Position numbers and translations under genes: made by a program. The notes below the pieces were generated by a model. It worked only from the letters and a program-made list of their open reading frames with translations, did no database searches and was not told the DNA's origin. From the IMG/VR virus record IMGVR_UViG_2563366928_000013: a stretch of 19,587 nucleotides of DNA; one strand, given 5' to 3'. The stretch comes from a virus. Taxonomy: Duplodnaviria; Heunggongvirae; Uroviricota; Caudoviricetes. Each line of letters starts with the position of its first letter. Within the stretch, counting starts at the first letter, position 1. Shown here in pieces: positions 1 to 19,587 of the stretch.

Positions 1-111
1 CCGGGCAACAAGGGAGACCGTCATTCCCGGTTCAAAGCTCTGCTGAACGATAGCGATCTTTTCCTGTGTAGTACGCCGTCTGCGTTTCTCCGGCCCTAAG
101 ACATCAATCAT
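1..111 (-). CDS. insC: IS2 OrfA (InsC) transposase, N-terminal 37 codons only (partial at window edge)
   Basis: Minus-strand translation from the ATG at 109-111 gives [37 protein letters not shown], the recalled InsC N-terminus. Confidence 0.8.
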
Positions 112-204
112 CTGTTCTCCAATGACTAGTCTAAAAACTAGTATTAAGACTATCACTTATTTAAGTGATATTGGTTGTCTGGAGATTCAGGGGGCCAGTC
201 TAAG
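1..204 (-). mobile_element. IS2 insertion sequence, left-end portion; the element continues beyond the window start
   Basis: Reverse complement of 95-204 reads TAGACTGGCCCCCTGAATCTCCAGACAACCAATATCACTTAAATAAGTGATAGTCTTAATACTAGTTTTTAGACTAGTCATTGGAGAACAGATGATTGATGTC, which matches the IS2 left terminus and orfA start as I recall them. Terminus is at 204. Recognition is from memory, not a search. Confidence 0.8.
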
Positions 205-1029
205 GACGTTAAGCCACGTCACATTGACGACATGTTAAAAGGTATCGTTGACCGAGGAGCACCAACGATAGCAACAGATGTATTACGCTGGACACGCCGT
301 ATCTTTGACTATGGGATAAAACGCCACGCTCTGGAGATAAACCCTTGTTCAGCGTTTGAAGTATCTGATGCTGGTGGTAAAGAGGTTTCCCGCGACCGTT
401 GGCTAACTCGCGATGAGCTTATCAGGCTATTCGAGGCTATGCGCACCGCAAAAGGATTCAGCCGCCAGAACGAACTGACATTTAAGCTATTGCTGGCACT
501 ATGCGTTCGTAAGATGGAGTTATGCGCCGCACGATGGGAAGAGTTTGATTTAGATGGTGCGGTATGGCATTTGCCGGAAGAACGCAGCAAAAACGGAGAC
601 CCTATTGATATACCTCTACCTTCCCCAGCCGTTGAATGGTTGAGAGAGCTACACACCTTTTCATGTAATAGCGCATGGGTGCTTCCGGCCAGGAAGATGC
701 AAAACAGAATGATCCCACATATTCAGGAAAGCACTTTACCCGTAGCACTGGCTAAGGTTCGCGCCGAAATGCCGGATGTGCCTAATTTCACGATTCACGA
801 CTTCCGACGCACCGCACGTACTCATTTAGCAGCATTGGGTGTTGATCCTGTCGTGGCGGAACGATGCCTCAATCATCGCATTAAGGGCGTAGAGGGGATT
901 TATAACCGTCATCAGTATTTTGATGAGCGTAAAGCAGCACTGGCACAGTGGGCAGATCTGCTGGTGGCACTGGAAAGCGGGAAAGACTACAACGTAACGC
1001 CATTCGATAAAGCCCGGAGGCAAATGTGA
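205..1029 (+). pseudogene. int: P4-family tyrosine integrase, C-terminal ~274 codons; N-terminal part cut off by the IS2 insertion
   Basis: Catalytic-domain motifs are present (HDFRRTARTHLAALGVDPVVAERCLNH and the tyrosine region GIYNRHQY). The in-frame stop at 166-168 and codons 175-204 lie inside the IS2 end, so the ORF-track start at 175 (TTG) is an artefact. About 130 N-terminal residues are missing. Confidence 0.75.
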
Positions 1030-1676
1030 ACAACATCTTGAGAAAATCGCCAATCGAACGGCTTTGTTCATCTGTATCGATTACCCCTCATGAAATGGCT
1101 GTGGCCTTGGCTGGCCTAAACCCATCTATGCGCATTAGCGATGTGCCTGAGGAAAATTTCGAATATGTCGATTTTGTCAGAACTCATCTTGCCAGAGCTA
1201 TCAAGGTGTACAGAGGTGAAAAAACTAGTAAAGATGAGCCTTGCCATGCCCTTGATATTTTCTTAGCTTCTTACCCATTTATTGACACAAATACACCAGA
1301 AATAATTGTTCAGAAAATATCAGAAGCGATTGATGATTTGCGTGGCACCAAGGGCTGGGAAGAAAAAGCCCGAAACCTTGGAGGACTCCAGTTAGTAAAC
1401 TACATCAAAGAAACCAACCGCAGCGGACGTGGGCAGCATAGAAAGCAGGATGAGGAAAACGGGACAATGAAAATGATGGGGTTGATAGTACATCTGCTGA
1501 TAAAAAAATCAGGCTCATCTTCCTACATCCAAAATGGGAAACCTAATCGCACAGCTATATACCGTGACATAGAAACCTTAATCAAGGATGAAGGGATATC
1601 CCATAAAGGAATAGCAAAAGCCACATTCCTAGAAAAAATCTCACGGGCTTTATTAGCTGTCCACGATCTCGACTAA
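1026..1676 (+). CDS. hypothetical protein, 216 aa, translationally coupled to int
   Basis: GTG start at 1026 overlaps the int stop (1027-1029); GGAGG at 1015-1019 gives a good RBS. AT-rich codon usage differs from int. No recognisable motif. Confidence 0.5.
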   Translation: MNNILRKSPIERLCSSVSITPHEMAVALAGLNPSMRISDVPEENFEYVDFVRTHLARAIKVYRGEKTSKDEPCHALDIFLASYPFIDTNTPEIIVQKISEAIDDLRGTKGWEEKARNLGGLQLVNYIKETNRSGRGQHRKQDEENGTMKMMGLIVHLLIKKSGSSSYIQNGKPNRTAIYRDIETLIKDEGISHKGIAKATFLEKISRALLAVHDLD

Positions 1677-2146: not shown

Positions 2147-2365
2147 ATGACAGCACACAAGCCAGCATCATCAGCTATCCCAACAACTGGATACATCCGT
2201 CGCTTTCGCATGCCGGAATTGCTAGGTGTTTCACTGCCTACTATTGATAGATGGGTTAAAAATGGCACTCTTCCACGCCCAGTGAAGCTAACAGATAACG
2301 TGACTGCGTTTGATGCGGTGGAAATTAATAACTGGCTGGCAGAACGCCGCGGGAAGGTGGCCTGA
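2147..2365 (+). CDS. alpA: AlpA-family phage transcriptional regulator (72 aa)
   Basis: Size and the motif LLGVSLPTIDRWVKNGTLPRPVKL...FDAVEINNWL are typical of AlpA/Xis-like regulators of P4/CP4-57-type islands; positioned after int. Confidence 0.7.
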   Translation: MTAHKPASSAIPTTGYIRRFRMPELLGVSLPTIDRWVKNGTLPRPVKLTDNVTAFDAVEINNWLAERRGKVA

Positions 2366-3642: not shown

Positions 3643-3817
3643 GCCGACAGGAACATCACAACCACAAAAACGCTACAAAGGTGCCCACGGAGCACTCGTT
3701 ACTGTCGAAAGCGTGTCTCACAACCGAGTGACGTTTTATCGCGACGGGTATCAATCGCCATGCGTACAACCGCTGGCACGTTTCATGAAGGAGTTCGCGG
3801 AGGTTAACAAATGCTAA
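3635..3817 (+). CDS. small hypothetical protein, 60 aa
   Basis: ATG at 3635 overlaps the antirepressor stop (ATGTTTAA), suggesting coupling. The longer ORF-track call from 3548 lies inside the antirepressor and is unlikely. Confidence 0.4.
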   Translation: MFKPTGTSQPQKRYKGAHGALVTVESVSHNRVTFYRDGYQSPCVQPLARFMKEFAEVNKC

Positions 3818-4878
3818 CCGTCCAGAAGAAGATATTTTCACTGGCTGGTATGTCGCCAAAATCCAGCAATATGACAGCAAAGTCAGGCATTAATACAGCA
3901 GATACAAGCAAAGTTTGTCATTTGCTGGTGGTAGGAGCGGATGCCTTAACCATGTCAGAAATTACGGTCGATGGTGTTAGCGTTGAGAAGGTCAGCGGCT
4001 GCGCCAGAGAATTTCTGGTCGTAGATGGCTTTCTCTTCTCGCGTAGTGACTCCACAAAAACCTTCGTCCATGCGCGTGACGTTAACGAAATGAGCGCGAT
4101 GTATTGTGCATCTGGTTCTTCCAATAGTGAGTTTTCGGAGTCCATAAAAAAGAGCTTGCCGTTATGCGGCAACACGGTTTATGGTTATAAGGCACCTCAT
4201 AAAACGGGTGCCGGGATTGGCGTCCTGAAAATTCGAAAGGCGACATATGACGCGCCGAGCGTCTTTTTTTATGTCGTAGGTCTGACTCACCCATTTTTTG
4301 GGCGTTGGTGTATAATCCAGCGCCTTTGTCAATCAATGGTGGCTCAGGCGGGGGCTTCTTCGGAAGCGCCGGTATCCTTCAGAGCCGGTTACGCCAACCC
4401 TGTCTGGGCTACCACCAGCGAAATTGGCGTTTCCGGTGGTAGCGTAACCCGCTATCTGAAGGAGGCTGCCACATGCTGGCTACTACCCCTACCCAAAAAC
4501 CGCAATTTATCTGGATTATCGCCGCAGTTCGCCGCGATTGCCCGACAATTACCGCCAAAATTCATCATATTGCTGCCGAGTCTGAACGCGATGCTCGCCG
4601 TTCTCTGGTGCACGATCACATCTGCTTTTTTGCTGGTCGTATCCGCATGGAGGTGGCACATGATTAAAACCTACGATGTGCATATGGACCCCCTCGAACG
4701 CACAAGCCAGATCATCACACTGACAGAAGTGATTAACGACATTCTGGTGAGCAACTCTCCCTTACGAGACGAAAGACTGAAGGCGTTACTCGCGATATTG
4801 GATCTCGCCGTTCGTGACGTTCATTTCCTGCTGGAAGGTGGCGAAATGCCAGTAAAAACGGGGGCAACCAATGAATAA
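3811..4878 (+). CDS. long open frame (355 codons) of uncertain validity; may be a real gene or a read-through across separate units
   Basis: A 356-codon stop-free frame is statistically unlikely by chance. Against it: a terminator-like hairpin plus T7 at 4249-4270 and a TATAAT at 4311-4316 sit inside it, and a strong GGAGGTG RBS precedes an internal ATG at 4660. Confidence 0.3.
4249..4270 (+). terminator. candidate intrinsic terminator (5-bp GC stem, 5-nt loop, T7 run)
   Basis: GACGC-GCCGA-GCGTC followed by TTTTTTT, read directly from the sequence. Confidence 0.35.
4473..4667 (+). CDS. small hypothetical protein, 64 aa; alternative to the long 3811 frame
   Basis: GGAGG at 4461-4465 with 7-nt spacing to the ATG; stop overlaps the ATG at 4660 of the next small ORF. 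Could be spurious. Confidence 0.3.
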   Translation: MLATTPTQKPQFIWIIAAVRRDCPTITAKIHHIAAESERDARRSLVHDHICFFAGRIRMEVAHD

Positions 4879-6150: not shown

Positions 6151-8502
6151 ATGCGAAACATTGATCTTATCCGTCAGGTTATCAGTGCGTCTGAAAACAA
6201 CTGGCCTCATGTGCTGGGCTGCCTGAACATAAATGTCCCTGACTCTCCGCGCCGTCATGCTCCCTGCCCTGCATGTGGGGGCAAAGATCGATTCCGGTTC
6301 GATGACAACGGGCGCGGTAGCTTCATCTGTAATCAGTGCGGCGCTGGTGATGGGCTGGATTTAATTAAACGCGTAAATAACTGCGACACAACAGAGGCGG
6401 CGCTTCTTGCCGCTGATGTTCTGGGTATTGATTACCGGACAACGGAAACACCAGAAGCCACCAGCCAGAAACGGGAACAACTGGAAACCGAGCGCCAGCG
6501 ACGCGAACAGGAGCGCCTGAAAAGGGCAGAGAAGGACGAACAACAAAGACGGGATACGTTTTCCCGTCAGTTTGATGACATGCGCAGAAAGGCTGTAAAC
6601 GGCAAATCTGATTATCTGGTTGCGAAAGGGGTAGGTGATTTTACATTCCCCGTGTTGCCCGATGGATCTCTGTTGCTGGCGCTGGTGGATAAATCCGGCG
6701 CAGTCACAGCAGCACAGACTATTACCTCACATGGTGAAAAAAGACTCCTGACAGGTTCGGCAAAGCGGGGGGCATATCACGCCATAAACGCACAGAAACG
6801 ACCTCACAGCATCATAATTGCTGAGGGGGTGGCTACCGCCCTGTCGTGCCATTTAATTCGCCCTGACGCAATGACAGTGGCAGCAATCGACGCTGGCAAC
6901 CTGTTGCCAGTAGCGGAAGTCATGCGCAGAACATATCCGCAGGCACAAATCATCATTGCCGCAGATAACGATCACCAGCAAGGAGACTCAGAAAGTGGAG
7001 GGATCAACACGGGGAAAGATGCCGCAGAGAGGGCCGCTATTTCCGTAGCTGGCAGGGTGTCTCTGCCACCGACTGACTATAAAGCCGACTGGAACGACTA
7101 TCACCAACAACACGGGCTGGCGGCAGCCACAGCAGCATTTAAAGATTCGATGTACCAGCCACGGGGGAAAGGGGCGCAGGTGAAAAATCACAAACAGTCA
7201 GTCGGGGCGCTGAATGAGATCAGTTCTGGCGAGGTGTTAAGCGATGATGAAATTGCTGTCCTCGAAGAAATCAACCGGACGTTTACGCATGTCACCATCG
7301 GCGGGAAACACAAGGTGGTGTCGCTAAAGCCTTCTCAAACCGGCGGTGTATCGCACGTTTTCGAGGATTTATCACAATTTCAGCATTATTTTCATCATAA
7401 ACCGAGAGTCGCCAGAAAGCTGGCGGGATCGGCGTGGCTGTCATGGAGTGGGAAGAACTACAAGCCAGGAGGCGTAGGATTTTATCCAGTACCAGACAAA
7501 TGCCCTGACGATGTTTTTAATCTGTATGAGGGGCTGGCACTGGAACCAATTGAAGGAGATTGCACGGTATACCTTAATCACCTGTTGCAGGTTGTCTGTG
7601 CCGGTAATGAAGAGGCATACCAATATCTTATCCAGTGGATGGCGCACATTATCCAAAAGCCTGATGAAAAACCGTCCGTGGCAATCGTGATGAAATCTGT
7701 CCCGGGCACAGGGAAAGGCACAACGGTTAAACCGCTGCTGCAAATACTGGGGCAGTACGCCGCCCACATTAACGGGGCGGGACATATTTCAGGGCGCTTC
7801 AATTCAATACTTGCTAACAAGCTACTGGTATTTGCTGACGAAGTGACGATCCACAAGCCGTCTGAAGCTGACAGACTTAAAGCGATTATTAGCGAACCGA
7901 CGTTTAACCTTGAGCGCAAGGGAATTGATGCTGAACCAATGCCGAATTTTGCCCGGTTGATATTTGCCAGTAACAGCACACAGGTATTACAGGCAGGGAT
8001 AAGAGAGCGTCGCTATCTCGTGCTTGAGCCATCTCCTGAAAAAGCACAGAGCCGGGAGTATTTTGATCGGCTGTACAGTTGGCTTAATGATGGCGGTGCC
8101 GCAAAGTTGCTTTGGCATCTTAAAGGGGTGGATCTCTCAGGTTTTGACCCTCAACGAGCGCCACAGACCGATGCCTTACGTGAAGAAATCTTGCTGGGGC
8201 TGTCTGGCGTTGAATTGTTTCTTTATGGCGAGCTAATCAATGAACCTCCGTTTAATGGCGAAGTCCGTTTGTTTGCAAAGGATATGGTTAGTCGGTTTGT
8301 AGCGTGGTCGCTTGAGCGTGGGGAAAAGCTTAAAGAACCAGCTGCCAGATCACTACTGGGTAAATCACTTGCACAAATGGGGCTGGTGAAGCATGGAAGA
8401 CCAGACCGAGGGAATGGCGTGTTCTACGAACTACCAGAGGTCGGAGTTCTACAGGCTGCGTTTGCCCGTCTGATCGGTATGGGGGGTTATGATGTTTTTT
8501 AA
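6151..8502 (+). CDS. P4 alpha-type bifunctional primase-helicase (783 aa)
   Basis: N-terminal zinc-binding CPACGGKDRFRF...CNQCGAGDG, a TOPRIM-like IIAEGVATALS...DND segment, and a C-terminal P-loop NTPase with Walker A VPGTGKGTT and Walker B LLVFADEV. RBS GGGGG 6 nt before the ATG. Confidence 0.85.
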   Translation: MRNIDLIRQVISASENNWPHVLGCLNINVPDSPRRHAPCPACGGKDRFRFDDNGRGSFICNQCGAGDGLDLIKRVNNCDTTEAALLAADVLGIDYRTTETPEATSQKREQLETERQRREQERLKRAEKDEQQRRDTFSRQFDDMRRKAVNGKSDYLVAKGVGDFTFPVLPDGSLLLALVDKSGAVTAAQTITSHGEKRLLTGSAKRGAYHAINAQKRPHSIIIAEGVATALSCHLIRPDAMTVAAIDAGNLLPVAEVMRRTYPQAQIIIAADNDHQQGDSESGGINTGKDAAERAAISVAGRVSLPPTDYKADWNDYHQQHGLAAATAAFKDSMYQPRGKGAQVKNHKQSVGALNEISSGEVLSDDEIAVLEEINRTFTHVTIGGKHKVVSLKPSQTGGVSHVFEDLSQFQHYFHHKPRVARKLAGSAWLSWSGKNYKPGGVGFYPVPDKCPDDVFNLYEGLALEPIEGDCTVYLNHLLQVVCAGNEEAYQYLIQWMAHIIQKPDEKPSVAIVMKSVPGTGKGTTVKPLLQILGQYAAHINGAGHISGRFNSILANKLLVFADEVTIHKPSEADRLKAIISEPTFNLERKGIDAEPMPNFARLIFASNSTQVLQAGIRERRYLVLEPSPEKAQSREYFDRLYSWLNDGGAAKLLWHLKGVDLSGFDPQRAPQTDALREEILLGLSGVELFLYGELINEPPFNGEVRLFAKDMVSRFVAWSLERGEKLKEPAARSLLGKSLAQMGLVKHGRPDRGNGVFYELPEVGVLQAAFARLIGMGGYDVF

Positions 8503-8531: not shown

Positions 8532-8635
8532 ACCTGTACCACCTATACCACTTTGCTAATTCATCATTAAAAACAATGTGTTATAGTGGTACAGGTCAAT
8601 ATCTTACCTATACCAGACCTGTACCACCTATACCA
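8532..8635. repeat. iteron cluster 1 just downstream of the primase: ACCTGTACCACCTATACCA twice direct (8532-8550, 8617-8635) plus an inverted core TGGTACAGGT (8587-8596)
   Basis: Exact repeats read from the sequence, in non-coding DNA at the primase 3' end; candidate ori-like site. Confidence 0.6.
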
Positions 8636-10416: not shown

Positions 10417-11760
10417 ATGGCTACGTGGCAACAGGGTATTAATTCTGGTGGGTTTCTTGCTGGCATCGGTGCGCAAAATGAGAATGCGCCAAAGGCAAGC
10501 GACATTAACGCAACGCTTGGTCTGATCCGCGAAAACAATGAATTGGCTCGATCAGGTGCAAATAACGTTGCTCTGACAGGTCTTCGTGGTCTGGCTGGAG
10601 TTGCTGATATTTATAAGCAGCAGCAACAGCAGGAACGTAAAGCAGCATTCCAGAAAGGTTATGCGGATGCTTATGCGTCCGGCGACAGGGAGCAGATGCG
10701 TAATCTTATTACAGCATTCCCCGAAGAGTTTGAGGAAGTCCGTAAAGGCATGGGGTATGTCGATGACGCCCAGCGGGATGATTATGGCAATCTGGCGCTC
10801 AAAGCACAGGTAGCCTCATCGCTTGGTCCGGGCGCATTTGGCAGGTTCATGATGGATAATGAGCAGGAGATGCGTCGTTTAGGTATCCCTCCAGAAACTA
10901 TTGCTGAAATGCAGGTTAATGACCCGCAGGGCTTCCAGCATTTCGCAGGTAATCTGGCGCTGTTTTCTCTCGGTCATGAGAAGTACTTCGATATCAAAGA
11001 TCGAATGGAAGGCCGTCGACTTGAGCAAGGGCGACTGGATGAAAGTATGCGTCAGGCTGACATGGAGAACGCGAGAGGATGGGCAAATATCCAGAACGCT
11101 CAACTAGACAGGGCTCAGCGGGCACAAATTCACTCAGATGAGATGGGATTGAAGCTAATGGAGCTGGGGCAAAAAGGTAAGCCGTCAGCAGACTTAATTA
11201 AGGGATTAAATTCTGATATTACCAATTTTGGCAAAAATTATAACTCTGTCAGAGCGGCAGCAAACTCTCTGCAAGCCCTTAGCAAGGTAAATACTGGCGC
11301 TGCCCAACTTGGGATTATCTTCAACTACATGAAATCTCTTGACCCGCAGTCAGTCGTTCGTGAAGGCGAACAGGTTCAGGTAATGCGGTCTGATGGCATA
11401 TGGGGACAAATCAAAGGTTACATAGACCAGCTTAATGCTGGAAACGGCCTGTCGCAGGAGGCAAAGGATAACATTGTTAACGCCGCAAAAATCAACGCCA
11501 ATGCTATGGGGCAGCAGTTTAACCAGCAGGTTGACGAATATCTCGATACATATGGAGAAACCATTCCTCAGGGGCTAAGAAAAAGCCTTGAAAGAAGGAA
11601 AGCGAAGCTATTTGACGATGTTTCCGGGCAGCCTACATCACAGGCTGGCACTGGGCAGGCAAAAGCGGCAACCGGAGGAATATCAGAAGGCGCAACGGCA
11701 ACCAACCCTAAAACTGGTCAGAAAATTATTTACAGGAACGGAAAATGGCAGCAAATGTAA
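10417..11760 (+). CDS. hypothetical protein, about 447 aa, Gln/Asn/Ala/Gly-rich with predicted coiled-coil; no enzymatic motif seen
   Basis: Long ORF; ATG at 10417 is in frame with the ORF-track GTG at 10405. No Walker or nuclease motifs found by eye. Stop overlaps the start of the next gene. Confidence 0.6.
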   Translation: MATWQQGINSGGFLAGIGAQNENAPKASDINATLGLIRENNELARSGANNVALTGLRGLAGVADIYKQQQQQERKAAFQKGYADAYASGDREQMRNLITAFPEEFEEVRKGMGYVDDAQRDDYGNLALKAQVASSLGPGAFGRFMMDNEQEMRRLGIPPETIAEMQVNDPQGFQHFAGNLALFSLGHEKYFDIKDRMEGRRLEQGRLDESMRQADMENARGWANIQNAQLDRAQRAQIHSDEMGLKLMELGQKGKPSADLIKGLNSDITNFGKNYNSVRAAANSLQALSKVNTGAAQLGIIFNYMKSLDPQSVVREGEQVQVMRSDGIWGQIKGYIDQLNAGNGLSQEAKDNIVNAAKINANAMGQQFNQQVDEYLDTYGETIPQGLRKSLERRKAKLFDDVSGQPTSQAGTGQAKAATGGISEGATATNPKTGQKIIYRNGKWQQM

Positions 11761-13862
11761 TCTTACCGGAAGGTTTTGTGCTCGATGAACAACCTGATAA
11801 CTCACAGTTTCCTGATAGTTCACAGCTTCCTGATGGTTTTGTGCTTGATGCCCAACCAGAACAGCAGCAATCACCTTTGGTTTCACCATGGGAAAATTCC
11901 AGACAGGAAAATGTTGTTAATAATGCTAACGGTTTCGACCGTTTTATGTATGGCGTTCTCAGTGGATTGATGGATGTTGGTAAAGGTGTTGGCCTGTTTC
12001 AGGATATGACACCAGAAGAGCAAGCCGCAATTCAGTCTCTACAGCAGAAGTTAGCGGCAAAACCATCAACCGCACAAGATGTTGGTGAGTTCGTTGGACA
12101 AGCAGCACCATTTGTTAGTGGTGGTGGGATTATTTCTCAGGTTCCGAAAGGGGCGGCAAGGCTGGCTGCCGCCGCAGGGCTTGGTGCTGGAGAAGGGGCT
12201 ATTGTAGCCAATGGAACAAATAGCGATGTTGCTTCCGGCGCTGCTATTGGCGCTGTGGCTGGCCCTGTAGCCGAACTTGCTGGCCCTGCAATTAATAAAA
12301 TAGCTGGGAAATTAACCAAGAAGAATGTTTCTTCGATTCCAGATATTGAGGGGATTACTCCTGCCGAAGAGAAAATTCGTAAGTTATCTGCACAAGGCAA
12401 CCCAAATCTTGCCTCTTCGCTTGAAGGGCTAGATCTAAAACCTCAGAAAGAAATTGTTGAGGCTGCAAATAGGCTTCATGTTGATTCAGTTCTTCCTTCT
12501 CATTTTTCAGGAAATGAGCAATACCAAGCTGTAGAGCAAGCCCTAAAGTCACGGACAGGATCAGCGTTAAAAGCTCAAGAAGATAAAGCAATAAGCGAAT
12601 TAGCCTCTAGTGCTGGCAAGATAATCAATGATGTTGCTGGTGCGCCAGATGCGTTAGCTATGAGCGAAAAATATATTTATCAGATAAATAGTAGAATGGA
12701 AGCACTAAAAAACCGTAGTGATCAGTTATATAAACGTGTTGATTCCGCTCTATCACCAAGAACAAAAGTCGAAGCAAATAACACAAGCACTATGCTGGAA
12801 AAAATCGCTGATGATTTAGGTGGGTGGGATAATCTTGACCCAATAGAAAAGCGAGTTTTTACAGCAATAAACCCCGGCCCAGATAGCATCCTAACGTATG
12901 CAAATTTAAACAGGCAAAGGCGTTTAGTTGGTGATGCCCTAAATAAAAAGCAGGGGCCATACAAAGATGCTGATAAAGAAGCGCTATCAAGACTATATGG
13001 AGCTTTAGCTGAAGACCAAAAATCTGTCTTATCCAATACTGGATACTTGCGAGATTTCGAAGTCGCACAACGCCTTGTAGCTATGAGAAAAAACTTAGAA
13101 AGGCAAATGGTAAATCTTCGCGGGAAAACACTTAATGGGGATATAGCGTATAAAGTAACGAATTCTCTTCAATCTATGGCAAAAGGTGATGCGAGAGGGT
13201 TTCGTGAGATTATGCAAAATACTCCATCAAGAACATTGCGAAGGGAGCTAGTAGGAACAGCATTAAGAGATATGCTTTCCTCTGGAAAGCGCGGGGCCGA
13301 CTTTAATCCATCTGGCTTTGCAGATTGGTGGCAAAACTTGCAACACAGTGGACAGCTAAAGACTTTGGCTGAACATTTGCCAAAAGAAACAATGAGCGGA
13401 CTATATGATGTATACAAAGTTGCCAGAGCAATAAAAAATGCTAAAGCGCATGAAATATCTACTGGTAAGCTGAATGAGTTTGTAAACAGATTTAATCGGG
13501 TAACAGCTCCATACGAACTAGCAGCAAAACACATTCAAAAAATAGGCACGATGATAGGCGCTCATTTTGGATCGCTTGGAGCCATTGCTGGGGCTGATAT
13601 TGGAGCAAGATTGGCGAGTAAAGCTCGATTAGCTGGTGGAGCAGGGGCGGCTGATGCTGCGGATAAATTAATTGCCTCGCCAGCCTTCCAGAGCGCAGTA
13701 AAAAATCTACACGGAAAAGCGCCTGGGCACATTGTTGATTCACGTATTAGGCGCTCCCCTCAATGGAAGAGTTTTTTTAACTCTCTTCCTGAACAGGAAA
13801 AACGGACCATCGCCCGACTGGGCATCATTACTTGGCTATCTAATGATCCAGATAATGACTAG
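11745..13862 (+). CDS. hypothetical protein, 705 aa; N-terminal PEGFVLDEQP / PDGFVLDAQP duplication, two Gly/Ala-rich glycine-zipper-like segments, long helical middle
   Basis: ATG at 11745 overlaps the upstream gene by 16 nt. Composition read from the translation; no P-loop or catalytic motif recognised. Confidence 0.65.
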   Translation: MAANVILPEGFVLDEQPDNSQFPDSSQLPDGFVLDAQPEQQQSPLVSPWENSRQENVVNNANGFDRFMYGVLSGLMDVGKGVGLFQDMTPEEQAAIQSLQQKLAAKPSTAQDVGEFVGQAAPFVSGGGIISQVPKGAARLAAAAGLGAGEGAIVANGTNSDVASGAAIGAVAGPVAELAGPAINKIAGKLTKKNVSSIPDIEGITPAEEKIRKLSAQGNPNLASSLEGLDLKPQKEIVEAANRLHVDSVLPSHFSGNEQYQAVEQALKSRTGSALKAQEDKAISELASSAGKIINDVAGAPDALAMSEKYIYQINSRMEALKNRSDQLYKRVDSALSPRTKVEANNTSTMLEKIADDLGGWDNLDPIEKRVFTAINPGPDSILTYANLNRQRRLVGDALNKKQGPYKDADKEALSRLYGALAEDQKSVLSNTGYLRDFEVAQRLVAMRKNLERQMVNLRGKTLNGDIAYKVTNSLQSMAKGDARGFREIMQNTPSRTLRRELVGTALRDMLSSGKRGADFNPSGFADWWQNLQHSGQLKTLAEHLPKETMSGLYDVYKVARAIKNAKAHEISTGKLNEFVNRFNRVTAPYELAAKHIQKIGTMIGAHFGSLGAIAGADIGARLASKARLAGGAGAADAADKLIASPAFQSAVKNLHGKAPGHIVDSRIRRSPQWKSFFNSLPEQEKRTIARLGIITWLSNDPDND

Positions 13863-14353: not shown

Positions 14354-14727
14354 AGTACGCGCATATCCGCTTTATGTGAAACAGGAAGATTTTTCTGATA
14401 TCACTGCCACAGCAAAACACCAATTTCGTGACCAGTACGCGCGCGAGGGGTATCAGTTGCAAAAAGTTTTGCAACTACGTCCGACCAGTACGCGCACGAT
14501 GGAGGGGAGTACCATGAAACTGTTCTCTACACGAGACAGAGTGGTGGTGATGTGTTGATTATCGGCGTATATGCGCACAGGACGCGCTATGACGATGTTT
14601 TATGCGGGTACACCAATCACATGTATCTGGTGTGATAAATCGCGTTACATGACCTCTCTGTTGTGCTGGTGGTTATCACGACGTTCTGAATCTGGCCTTT
14701 GCCTGATATTTTGCGACAAGTACGCGC
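14354..14727 (+). repeat. array of AGTACGCGC-core direct repeats (14354, 14434, 14487, 14719) with an embedded 20-bp palindrome (14456-14475) and a second repeated motif ATTATCGG..GCGTAT (14558, 14741)
   Basis: Exact 9-mer four times on one strand within about 375 bp; extended motif GAC(C/A)AGTACGCGC(G/A)CG. Lies between the membrane gene and Abi_2; local GC is higher than the flanks. Confidence 0.5.
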
Positions 14728-15107
14728 GCGTAGCATCGAAATTATCGGATGGCGTATGCTGCTGGCAATATGAAGACCGATAGTATTAACCGAAAAGCGA
14801 TTAAGGAGTGCCAACTTTTCAGTAGAGAAACTAGACAGCATAGGAAAATGTAGAAATTACCCAATTAATAGGTAAAAGTTATTGACACAGCCTGTAGTGG
14901 ATAACGATATGAATAAAAACCACATATAGTGGTTTTTCGTGAGTGATGATAGTACCTATGTTAGTTTCCTAAGTAACTGTGCATTGACATGTGGATAACT
15001 TCGGATAGAGTTACAGGCAACCGAGCCCGATCCTCTGTTTCTCCGCCGCCGATTTCAGGCATGTGAGTTTCACGGTCGGGCCTTTTATTATCTTTTGTTT
15101 CGCCACT

Positions 15108-17235: not shown

Positions 17236-17664
17236 CGAAAGAATCAATGGGTTAGTCCATCGTGCAAATTTGCACCCTGCCAGCCAACGCAATTTCTCGT
17301 TGGCGAAAATATCAGGTATTTACTGAACGAACGGTCTACCAGTCTGTTCAGTTACCAGTTGCATATGGCTGTTTCATGTGAGAACGGAGGTTTTTTCGGA
17401 CATCACTATTGGGTACAGCAATTTCACGAGCAATACGCGCGCGCAGGACAACAAGCCTGAACATGGTTACACACCTCGATCGTGAGGGATGTAGGCAATG
17501 GCTTCTGACCAAAGCACCCGAAAAAACCGTGTACATAAGGGTGTACATAATCAAAAATCGCATTAGGAAGAAACCAGCTACAATGCGGCATTGAAGCCAA
17601 TACTCTACAAACAGATTCAACATTGAATAACTCGTAACGCCAATTCTTACTTTTCAGCCTTCAC

Positions 17665-17700: not shown

Positions 17701-17829
17701 CCCCGCAACTTCAATTCTGTTTTGCGTGCCTGCTCCAGATTTTGCGATGTTTTTTTGCCCAGCACACTGAGAACGTGAGATACTCACAACTGTATATAAA
17801 TGGGTCTTCCCCGATCATGGTGGGAAGAC

Positions 17830-19068: not shown

Positions 19069-19587
19069 TTACTTTAAACTGATATTATTATTTTTTGCCC
19101 ACTTTCTTAATCTTCCATTAGCGTTGGCGTAAGGCGAAGATGTGTTAAATGAGATCATTCTCCCCATCGTCCATTTTGTGTACCATGGTCTTCCATACAA
19201 AATATCATCGGTACGATCATTAATAAGGTTCACAATCTCATTTTTTACAGTCTGAAGTTCAGCTACTAACAACTCATAACTTAACTCACTGTAATCTGAG
19301 TAAAATTTTTGAGCAAGAAGGCCAAGCTGATTCCATTTATAGCCAGTTTCCGGAAAATCGACAGGCAGACCTTTAGCATCAGAAGCGATCCACTTTACAA
19401 CAAGAGCATTCCATCCAAGCAGATACGAAACGAGATCACGAACACTCATCTCCGTTCCTTTGGCGTGTCCGTCCATTGATTTATCTGAAGTAATTTCTGG
19501 TGGGATTGTGTTGAGGTAACTAATTAATTTACTAAAATTTTTATCAATAGCTAAAAGCAGTTCAGCTTTTGTTTGCGGCACACTCAT
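19069..19587 (-). CDS. ClbS/DfsB-like (DUF1706) protein, 172 aa; start codon at the last window bases
   Basis: Pattern GHAKGT...VSYLLGWNALVVKW...KWNQLGLLAQKFYSDY...YGRPWYTKWTMGRMISFNTSSPYANANGRLRKW matches my recollection of ClbS-like proteins. Its stop lies only 18 bp from the transposase start. Confidence 0.55.
   Translation of the reverse strand: MSVPQTKAELLLAIDKNFSKLISYLNTIPPEITSDKSMDGHAKGTEMSVRDLVSYLLGWNALVVKWIASDAKGLPVDFPETGYKWNQLGLLAQKFYSDYSELSYELLVAELQTVKNEIVNLINDRTDDILYGRPWYTKWTMGRMISFNTSSPYANANGRLRKWAKNNNISLK

Follow-up and report, generated by a model that had tools for sequence, protein, structure and literature searches.

An IS2 insertion in the integrase gene of a satellite-type island at the 3′ end of yicC in Escherichia coli

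The island and its closest relatives

The Gram-negative PICIs of the EcCICFT073 type carry int at the left end and an alpA gene, nearly all of their genes are transcribed rightward, and when int of EcCICFT073 was knocked out, detectable excision and transfer were abolished (PMC6092414). A preprint from another group places the integration site of reference PICIs in yicC and notes that the identity block drifts (bioRxiv 10.1101/2022.07.18.500453). Literature searches on PICIs and yicC gave only this one statement, and a search for an island between yicC and dinD found none.

The DNA analysed here, referred to as the window, is a stretch of 19,587 nucleotides that begins inside an IS2 copy. It matches positions 739902–759488 in the chromosome of E. 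coli AF10, an isolate from a UK blood culture (NZ_OZ546911.1), and the sequence upstream of it was read from that record. The window and AF10 are identical in 19,585 of 19,587 bases. The sole difference is at positions 4235–4236, where the window has GA and AF10 has TG, and it falls within an IsrK-like RNA; an exact identity of the window with AF10 is ruled out by these two adjacent bases. A second isolate, AF14 (NZ_OZ546925.1), matches the window as well as AF10 does and is apparently also two bases off, the bit scores being equal. The window may thus stem from a third isolate of this lineage, or from a variant of AF10 or AF14.

The layout of the island fits that of the Gram-negative PICIs, with some P4-like traits, as follows. 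Without IS2, the island is about 18.1 kb long, and at least 80% of it is present in 60 genomes. It has int at the left, alpA, and rightward transcription: of the 21 island genes annotated to the right of the IS, 19 are on the + strand. The genes are int, a conserved gene of unknown function, alpA, an AntA/AntB gene, an ORF annotated as ‘ash’, a primase-helicase gene, two homologues of P22 ejection genes, an Abi_2 gene, and a PerC gene. The AlpA-family regulator is encoded at 2147–2365 (+ strand; Pfam Phage_AlpA, E = 6e-6). The primase-helicase, which is pri-rep or P4 alpha-like, is encoded at 6151–8502 (+ strand) and matches Pfam Zn_Ribbon_Prim, Toprim_3, and DUF5906, and the PHROG DNA primase group. 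On the 3′ side of this gene are two identical 19-nt repeats, ACCTGTACCACCTATACCA, at 8532–8550 and 8617–8635, which are candidate origin iterons. The two repeats are 85 bp apart, and a related inverted copy is found between them.

Two RNA genes are predicted between alpA and the primase-helicase gene, both on the + strand: isrK, for the Hfq-binding RNA IsrK, at 4192–4269 (Rfam, 67.9 bits), and a C4 antisense RNA at 4332–4419 (Rfam, 79.9 bits; gathering score 45). The C4 family includes the c4 RNAs of P1 and P7 and the CI immunity RNA of P4, so that the island has the CI/C4-family RNA of the P4-like satellites. Both RNAs lie inside the ‘ash family protein’ ORF, 3811–4878, under the Pfam Phage_ASH match. 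Part of what is annotated as the ‘ash’ protein may be an RNA immunity locus that follows the AntA/AntB gene.

The homologues of the P22 ejection proteins gp20 (Pfam Inj_translocase, E = 5e-74) and gp16 (PHROG DNA transfer protein) are encoded at 10417–13862 (+ strand). The first ~1.8 kb of this segment has 85–94% nucleotide identity to Kapi1, SEN22, and other P22-like phages. That the island is itself a catalogued phage was considered and rejected, as the phage collection matched only this 1.8-kb ejection-gene segment. A literature search for satellites with ejection proteins found nothing relevant. No capsid, tail, terminase, or lysis genes are present among the ORFs scanned, and no Psu, Delta, or Sid homologue is present among the 14 ORFs scanned against Pfam and PHROG, a set that leaves out several ORFs of fewer than 90 residues. 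No helper phage, packaging gene, or interference gene was identified for the island. In the accessory region, which extends from the ejection genes to attR, a motif of 20–23 nt, ATTTCGTGACCAGTACGCGCGCG, is found in 3–4 copies that are 80–90% alike, at 14423–14734 and 17421–17447.

The likeness to the Gram-negative PICIs extends to a pri-rep gene with candidate iterons behind it, a PerC-type cargo regulator, integration at yicC, and a probable need of int for excision. In contrast to those elements, which are roughly 10–15 kb long, the island measures about 18 kb once IS2 is subtracted, has two P22-type ejection genes and a C4/IsrK-type RNA pair, and has an inactivated int. With the P4/CP4-57-type elements, the island shares the integrase architecture of Arm-DNA-bind_3, central, and catalytic domains, an AlpA/Vis-type regulator, an alpha-like primase-helicase, and the C4/CI-family RNA. 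Unlike those elements, it has no Psu, Delta, or Sid homologue in the ORFs scanned, and its integration site is in a protein-coding gene, not in a tRNA gene.

The IS2 copy and the divided integrase gene

IS2, a member of the IS3 family, is a common jumping gene of E. coli, and a 5-bp target-site duplication is the product expected of its transposition. The K-12 feature ‘insertion sequence:IS2A’ (NC_000913.3, 381260–382590) was taken as the reference. Positions 1–202 of the window are nt 1–202 of IS2 in reverse complement (− strand), with no gaps and five mismatches relative to the annotated IS2A. This segment contains the left terminal repeat (IRL), the untranslated leader, and codons 1–37 of orfA/insC, whose minus-strand ATG is at 111–109. 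The other 1129 bp of the element are upstream of the window and were read in AF10, in which the whole element is complete and lies on the minus strand. Every IS2 feature tested was found in this copy and is shared with K-12 IS2A, as follows. The length is 1331 bp, and the alignment has 1331 columns, 0 gaps, and 57 substitutions, for an identity of 95.72%, within the range of 95% or more expected of IS2. The termini are the same as those of IS2A over the first 132 nt (IRL end) and the last 26 nt (IRR end), and the imperfect terminal inverted repeats, TAGACTGGCCCC... and TGGATTTGCCCC..., are present. The orfA and orfB frames, nt 47–457 and 397–1320, are open and overlap, with the A6G −1 frameshift site at nt 409; PGAP labels the AF10 element an IS3 family transposase with programmed frameshift. 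Finally, there is a 5-bp duplication. The 57 substitutions set the copy apart as an isoform rather than the K-12 sequence.

The boundary between IS2 and int is at 202/203, since the intact int genes of other genomes align with the window from 203 on. The target-site duplication is AGGAC; its right copy is at 203–207 (int nt 443–447), and its twin is directly to the left of IS2 (L001 6867–6871). Uninterrupted int genes have one AGGAC. The matches to IS2 and to int are exact or near-exact across hundreds of bases and are beyond chance. An earlier note on the window, made from the letters alone, had recognised IS2 and expected an AGGAC duplication, and in both it was right. Its coordinates need correction: it ended IS2 at 204, two nucleotides too high, and put the duplicated pentamer at 205–209. 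It also had int resume at 205. This is true of the first complete native codon, the GAC at 205, the codon at 202–204 being a hybrid in which one base is from IS2 and two are from int, but the int sequence itself starts at 203.

The 3′ fragment of int extends from 203 to 1029 on the + strand (int nt 443–1269, residues 150–422 plus the stop codon) and is 100% identical to intact int from 203 on. In the ORF list it is part of a chimeric ORF of 284 codons, 175–1029 (+ strand), whose TTG start and first nine codons come from IS2. This TTG is inside the IRL, in agreement with the earlier note, which took the apparent start to be IS2-derived, and an in-frame TGA at 166–168 precedes the ORF. No Shine–Dalgarno-like sequence is found ahead of the TTG at 175 or the next in-frame ATG at 232. 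An outward promoter in IS2 that might serve the 3′ fragment was looked for and rejected, as a consensus scan of L001 6150–9100 gave no sigma-70-like site.

The 5′ part of int, as the earlier note had also anticipated, is beyond IS2 and outside the window. In AF10 it is found 1.33 kb upstream, where it fills the space from just after yicC to the IRR end of IS2, and consists of the first 447 nt, or 149 of the 422 codons (35%). Its frame reads 28 codons into IS2 before a stop, giving a predicted product of 177 residues. When IS2 and one AGGAC are removed in silico, an uninterrupted int ORF of 1269 nt and 422 residues results, and this reconstructed gene is 100% identical over its full length to the intact int of four genomes, ACN001, AHM8C212RI, AHM8C160RI, and 500010. 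The ACN001 protein is WP_021548272.1, and PK5 is a further strain with an intact int.

Heterobivalent integrases, of which the lambda and P4 types are examples, need an arm-binding, a core-binding, and a catalytic domain in one chain to recombine att sites. The reconstructed Int has this organization; int as it stands does not. The Pfam domains of the reconstructed protein are an arm-binding domain at residues 4–90, a core-binding domain at 110–198 (Phage_int_M), and a catalytic domain at 213–385, and residues 101–207 match the solved core-binding domain of an integrase, 2kj5 (E = 4e-44). That is, the cut after residue 149 bisects the predicted core-binding domain, the region in which the earlier note had located the break. 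By these domain matches, an intact arm-binding domain and the first half of the core-binding domain remain in the 5′ fragment, and the 3′ fragment has the distal half of the core-binding domain (Phage_int_M positions 42–92 of 96) and the whole catalytic domain (Phage_integrase positions 1–169 of 172).

The 3′ fragment retains the motifs VRKMEL (R250), HDFRRT (H346, R349), LNH (H372), and GIY (Y381), which line up with the catalytic Arg, His-x-x-Arg, His, and Tyr positions of other tyrosine recombinases, and there is no secondary decay in the int flanks. The Pfam Phage_integrase match of Int is significant. The alignment of the motifs to IntI4 and a XerC-like protein is weak (E 0.1–0.2), with no confident assignment of the catalytic lysine, and a search of solved structures with the catalytic domain gave weak matches only. 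In the public annotation the split int is already flagged as a broken gene: PGAP calls both AF10 pieces partial pseudogenes, one ‘missing C-terminus’ and the other ‘missing N-terminus’.

The gene that follows int, 1026–1676 (+ strand), is conserved and encodes a protein of 216 residues with no assigned function (phrog_30524). Its GTG start overlaps the int stop codon in the sequence ATGTGA, and it is likely co-transcribed with int. Because of this overlap, the gene may be exposed to polarity from IS2.

Attachment sites and mobility of the island

The earlier note pointed to a tRNA or tmRNA gene as the attachment site. ARAGORN finds neither in the 29 kb around the island, and this proposal is rejected. 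Instead, alignment of the attL and attR of AF10 and ACN001 with the empty K-12 site places the island at the 3′ end of a protein gene, yicC. The attL core, CAGATTCAGAATATCGAATAA, lies outside the window (L003 1118–1138) and consists of the final 21 nt of yicC, stop codon included. The attR core, CAGATTCAACATTGAATAA, at 17612–17630 (+ strand), marks the right boundary of the island. The empty attB of K-12 is CAGATTCAGAACATCGAATAA, and excision would reconstitute the junction ...CAGATTCAGAAYATYGAATAACTCGTAACGCC..., in which the 3′ end of yicC is joined to CTCGTAACGCCAATTC.

Candidate arm-binding sites for Int are provided by GTGTACAT repeats, which lie at 17528–17551 (+ strand) in the right arm; other copies are outside the window, in the stretch that separates yicC from the start of int. 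The sequences TGTACAT/ATGTACA occur eight times in the 29 kb, at four sites by attL and two by attR and nowhere else, and two of the left-side sites of the GTGTACAT type match in both orientations. The attL of AF10 differs from that of ACN001 by a single base, in a stretch of A residues that lies downstream of the core. Two positions of the attR core differ between these strains, and the identity block is conserved. Since the AF10 sites match those of ACN001, whose int is intact, the recombination substrates attL and attR appear undamaged.

To the right of the island is an ISL3-family element of 1885 bp with an ISEc53-like transposase gene and a ClbS/DfsB gene. It starts at 17794, runs past the end of the window at 19587 to L003 22588, has perfect terminal repeats of 11 bp, and is flanked by an 8-bp duplication, ATATAAAT. 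The element sits upstream of dinD within CTGTATATAAATACAG, which we take to be the dinD LexA box, and dinD is also annotated as frameshifted in AF10.

We infer that the IS2 insertion very probably stops the island from excising itself, for the following reasons. The domains of Int are split between two fragments, and no other recombinase is annotated in the island. Among 5426 complete genomes, int occupies at most two places per genome, and the two places in AF10 are accounted for by the two halves, so that AF10 has no second close copy at the level of megablast similarity. Finally, excision of EcCICFT073 depends on its int (PMC6092414). A divergent integrase elsewhere in the genome could possibly act on the att sites. 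It is also conceivable that the 3′ fragment, with its open frame and all its catalytic motifs, has some residual activity, such as Holliday-junction resolution or topoisomerase-like cleavage.

An alternative is that the island is still mobile, by means of Int supplied in trans from a related element or an incoming satellite, by a precise excision of IS2, or, with no excision of the island, through transduction of the generalised or lateral kind. Precise excision of an IS is rare. The state of the DNA offers this alternative some encouragement, as the att cores and arm repeats are undisturbed and agree with those of a strain whose int is whole, the catalytic motifs are undamaged, and outside int the identity to copies with an intact gene is 98.7–99.9%. 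Nevertheless, the absence of a second close int copy in the genome counts against it, as does the finding that EcCICFT073 without int gave no detected transfer (PMC6092414), and we consider continued mobility unlikely. It does bear on the proposal of the earlier note that the cargo may be fixed in this genome. ‘Fixed’ is too strong a word, since the att sites are intact, and Int in trans or a precise loss of IS2 could restore mobility.

It is tempting to imagine a role for the insertion, in which it is not neutral decay but a selected ‘locking’ of a satellite that carries Abi defence and PerC regulatory cargo in an invasive clinical lineage. The 177-residue product, made of the intact arm-binding domain and 28 IS2-encoded residues, would then still occupy the GTGTACAT sites, either to regulate or to serve as a decoy when related satellites enter. 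We regard this proposal as decidedly improbable. The insertion is a routine case of IS-mediated pseudogenisation, real but ordinary.

Origin and age of the insertion

The IS2–int junction is present in only two of the 5426 complete E. coli genomes, those of AF10 and AF14, which are UK blood isolates from the same project. Carriers of int number 335 among these genomes, and in 320 of them the gene is in one piece. Both chromosomes are rich in IS2, with 18 places in AF10 and 18 in AF14 versus a median of 4 for E. coli genomes, which suggests an expansion of IS2 in the AF10/AF14 lineage. The AF14 chromosome also holds, elsewhere, an IS2 copy that is 100% identical. The rarity of the junction, the many IS2 copies, the identical copy in AF14, and the undecayed flanking gene together indicate that the insertion is a recent event in a lineage with active IS2.

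We hold it highly probable that a single, recent, and simple transposition of IS2 into codon 149/150 of int left the island without excision or re-integration of its own. The proposed course of events is as follows. An active IS2 copy would have jumped into int codon 149/150 of the ~18-kb PICI/P4-like island at the yicC 3′ end. The insertion cuts Int within its core-binding domain, so that the arm-binding and catalytic domains are now on different pieces, each with one half of the core-binding domain. Neither piece of Int should then perform att × att recombination, and excision and re-integration by the island’s own functions would be lost. The att sites and the other island genes remain intact.

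A different history would be a rearrangement mediated by IS2, for example recombination of one IS2 copy with another, or a deletion or inversion next to the element. In that case the two int pieces would not have come from a single gene, and some of the island would be missing. A genome with 18 IS2 places has many substrates for IS–IS recombination. However, identical AGGAC repeats flank IS2 on both sides, the joined flanks give, base for base, an int allele that is intact in four other genomes, and the gene order from yicC to dinD is the same as in ACN001. The target duplication and the perfect reconstruction of int show a simple transposition and all but exclude a rearrangement. The chance that IS2 in int is an assembly artefact, a repeat collapsed or misplaced, is close to nil: IS elements are a classic source of misassembly, but the same junction is found in the window and in the independently assembled complete chromosomes of AF10 and AF14, with a target duplication such as real IS2 transposition makes.

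Insertion of an IS into a recombinase gene is a common first step in the immobilisation of islands and degenerate prophages. Unlike IS-inactivated integrases in general, the int described here was interrupted very recently, shows no secondary decay, and has its pre-insertion allele intact in other strains. Another member of the island family, in MDR_56 (L002 5824–7820), has an intact int and is cut off just after it by IS1203, with most of the replication and regulation module missing. So members of this family decay by IS insertion in differing ways.

Beyond the annotation of this strain, the insertion of IS2 into int matters little. It shows that IS2 transposed very recently in a bloodstream lineage rich in this element. 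For studies of the Abi/PerC cargo or of mobility, it is of note that this copy of the satellite-type island in yicC is probably unable to mobilise through functions of its own. The insertion also provides an int-null allele of natural origin whose att sites are intact, and islands that are int+ but otherwise 98.7–99.9% identical are present in other strains. Work on excision or helper phages could use such a pair as a control.
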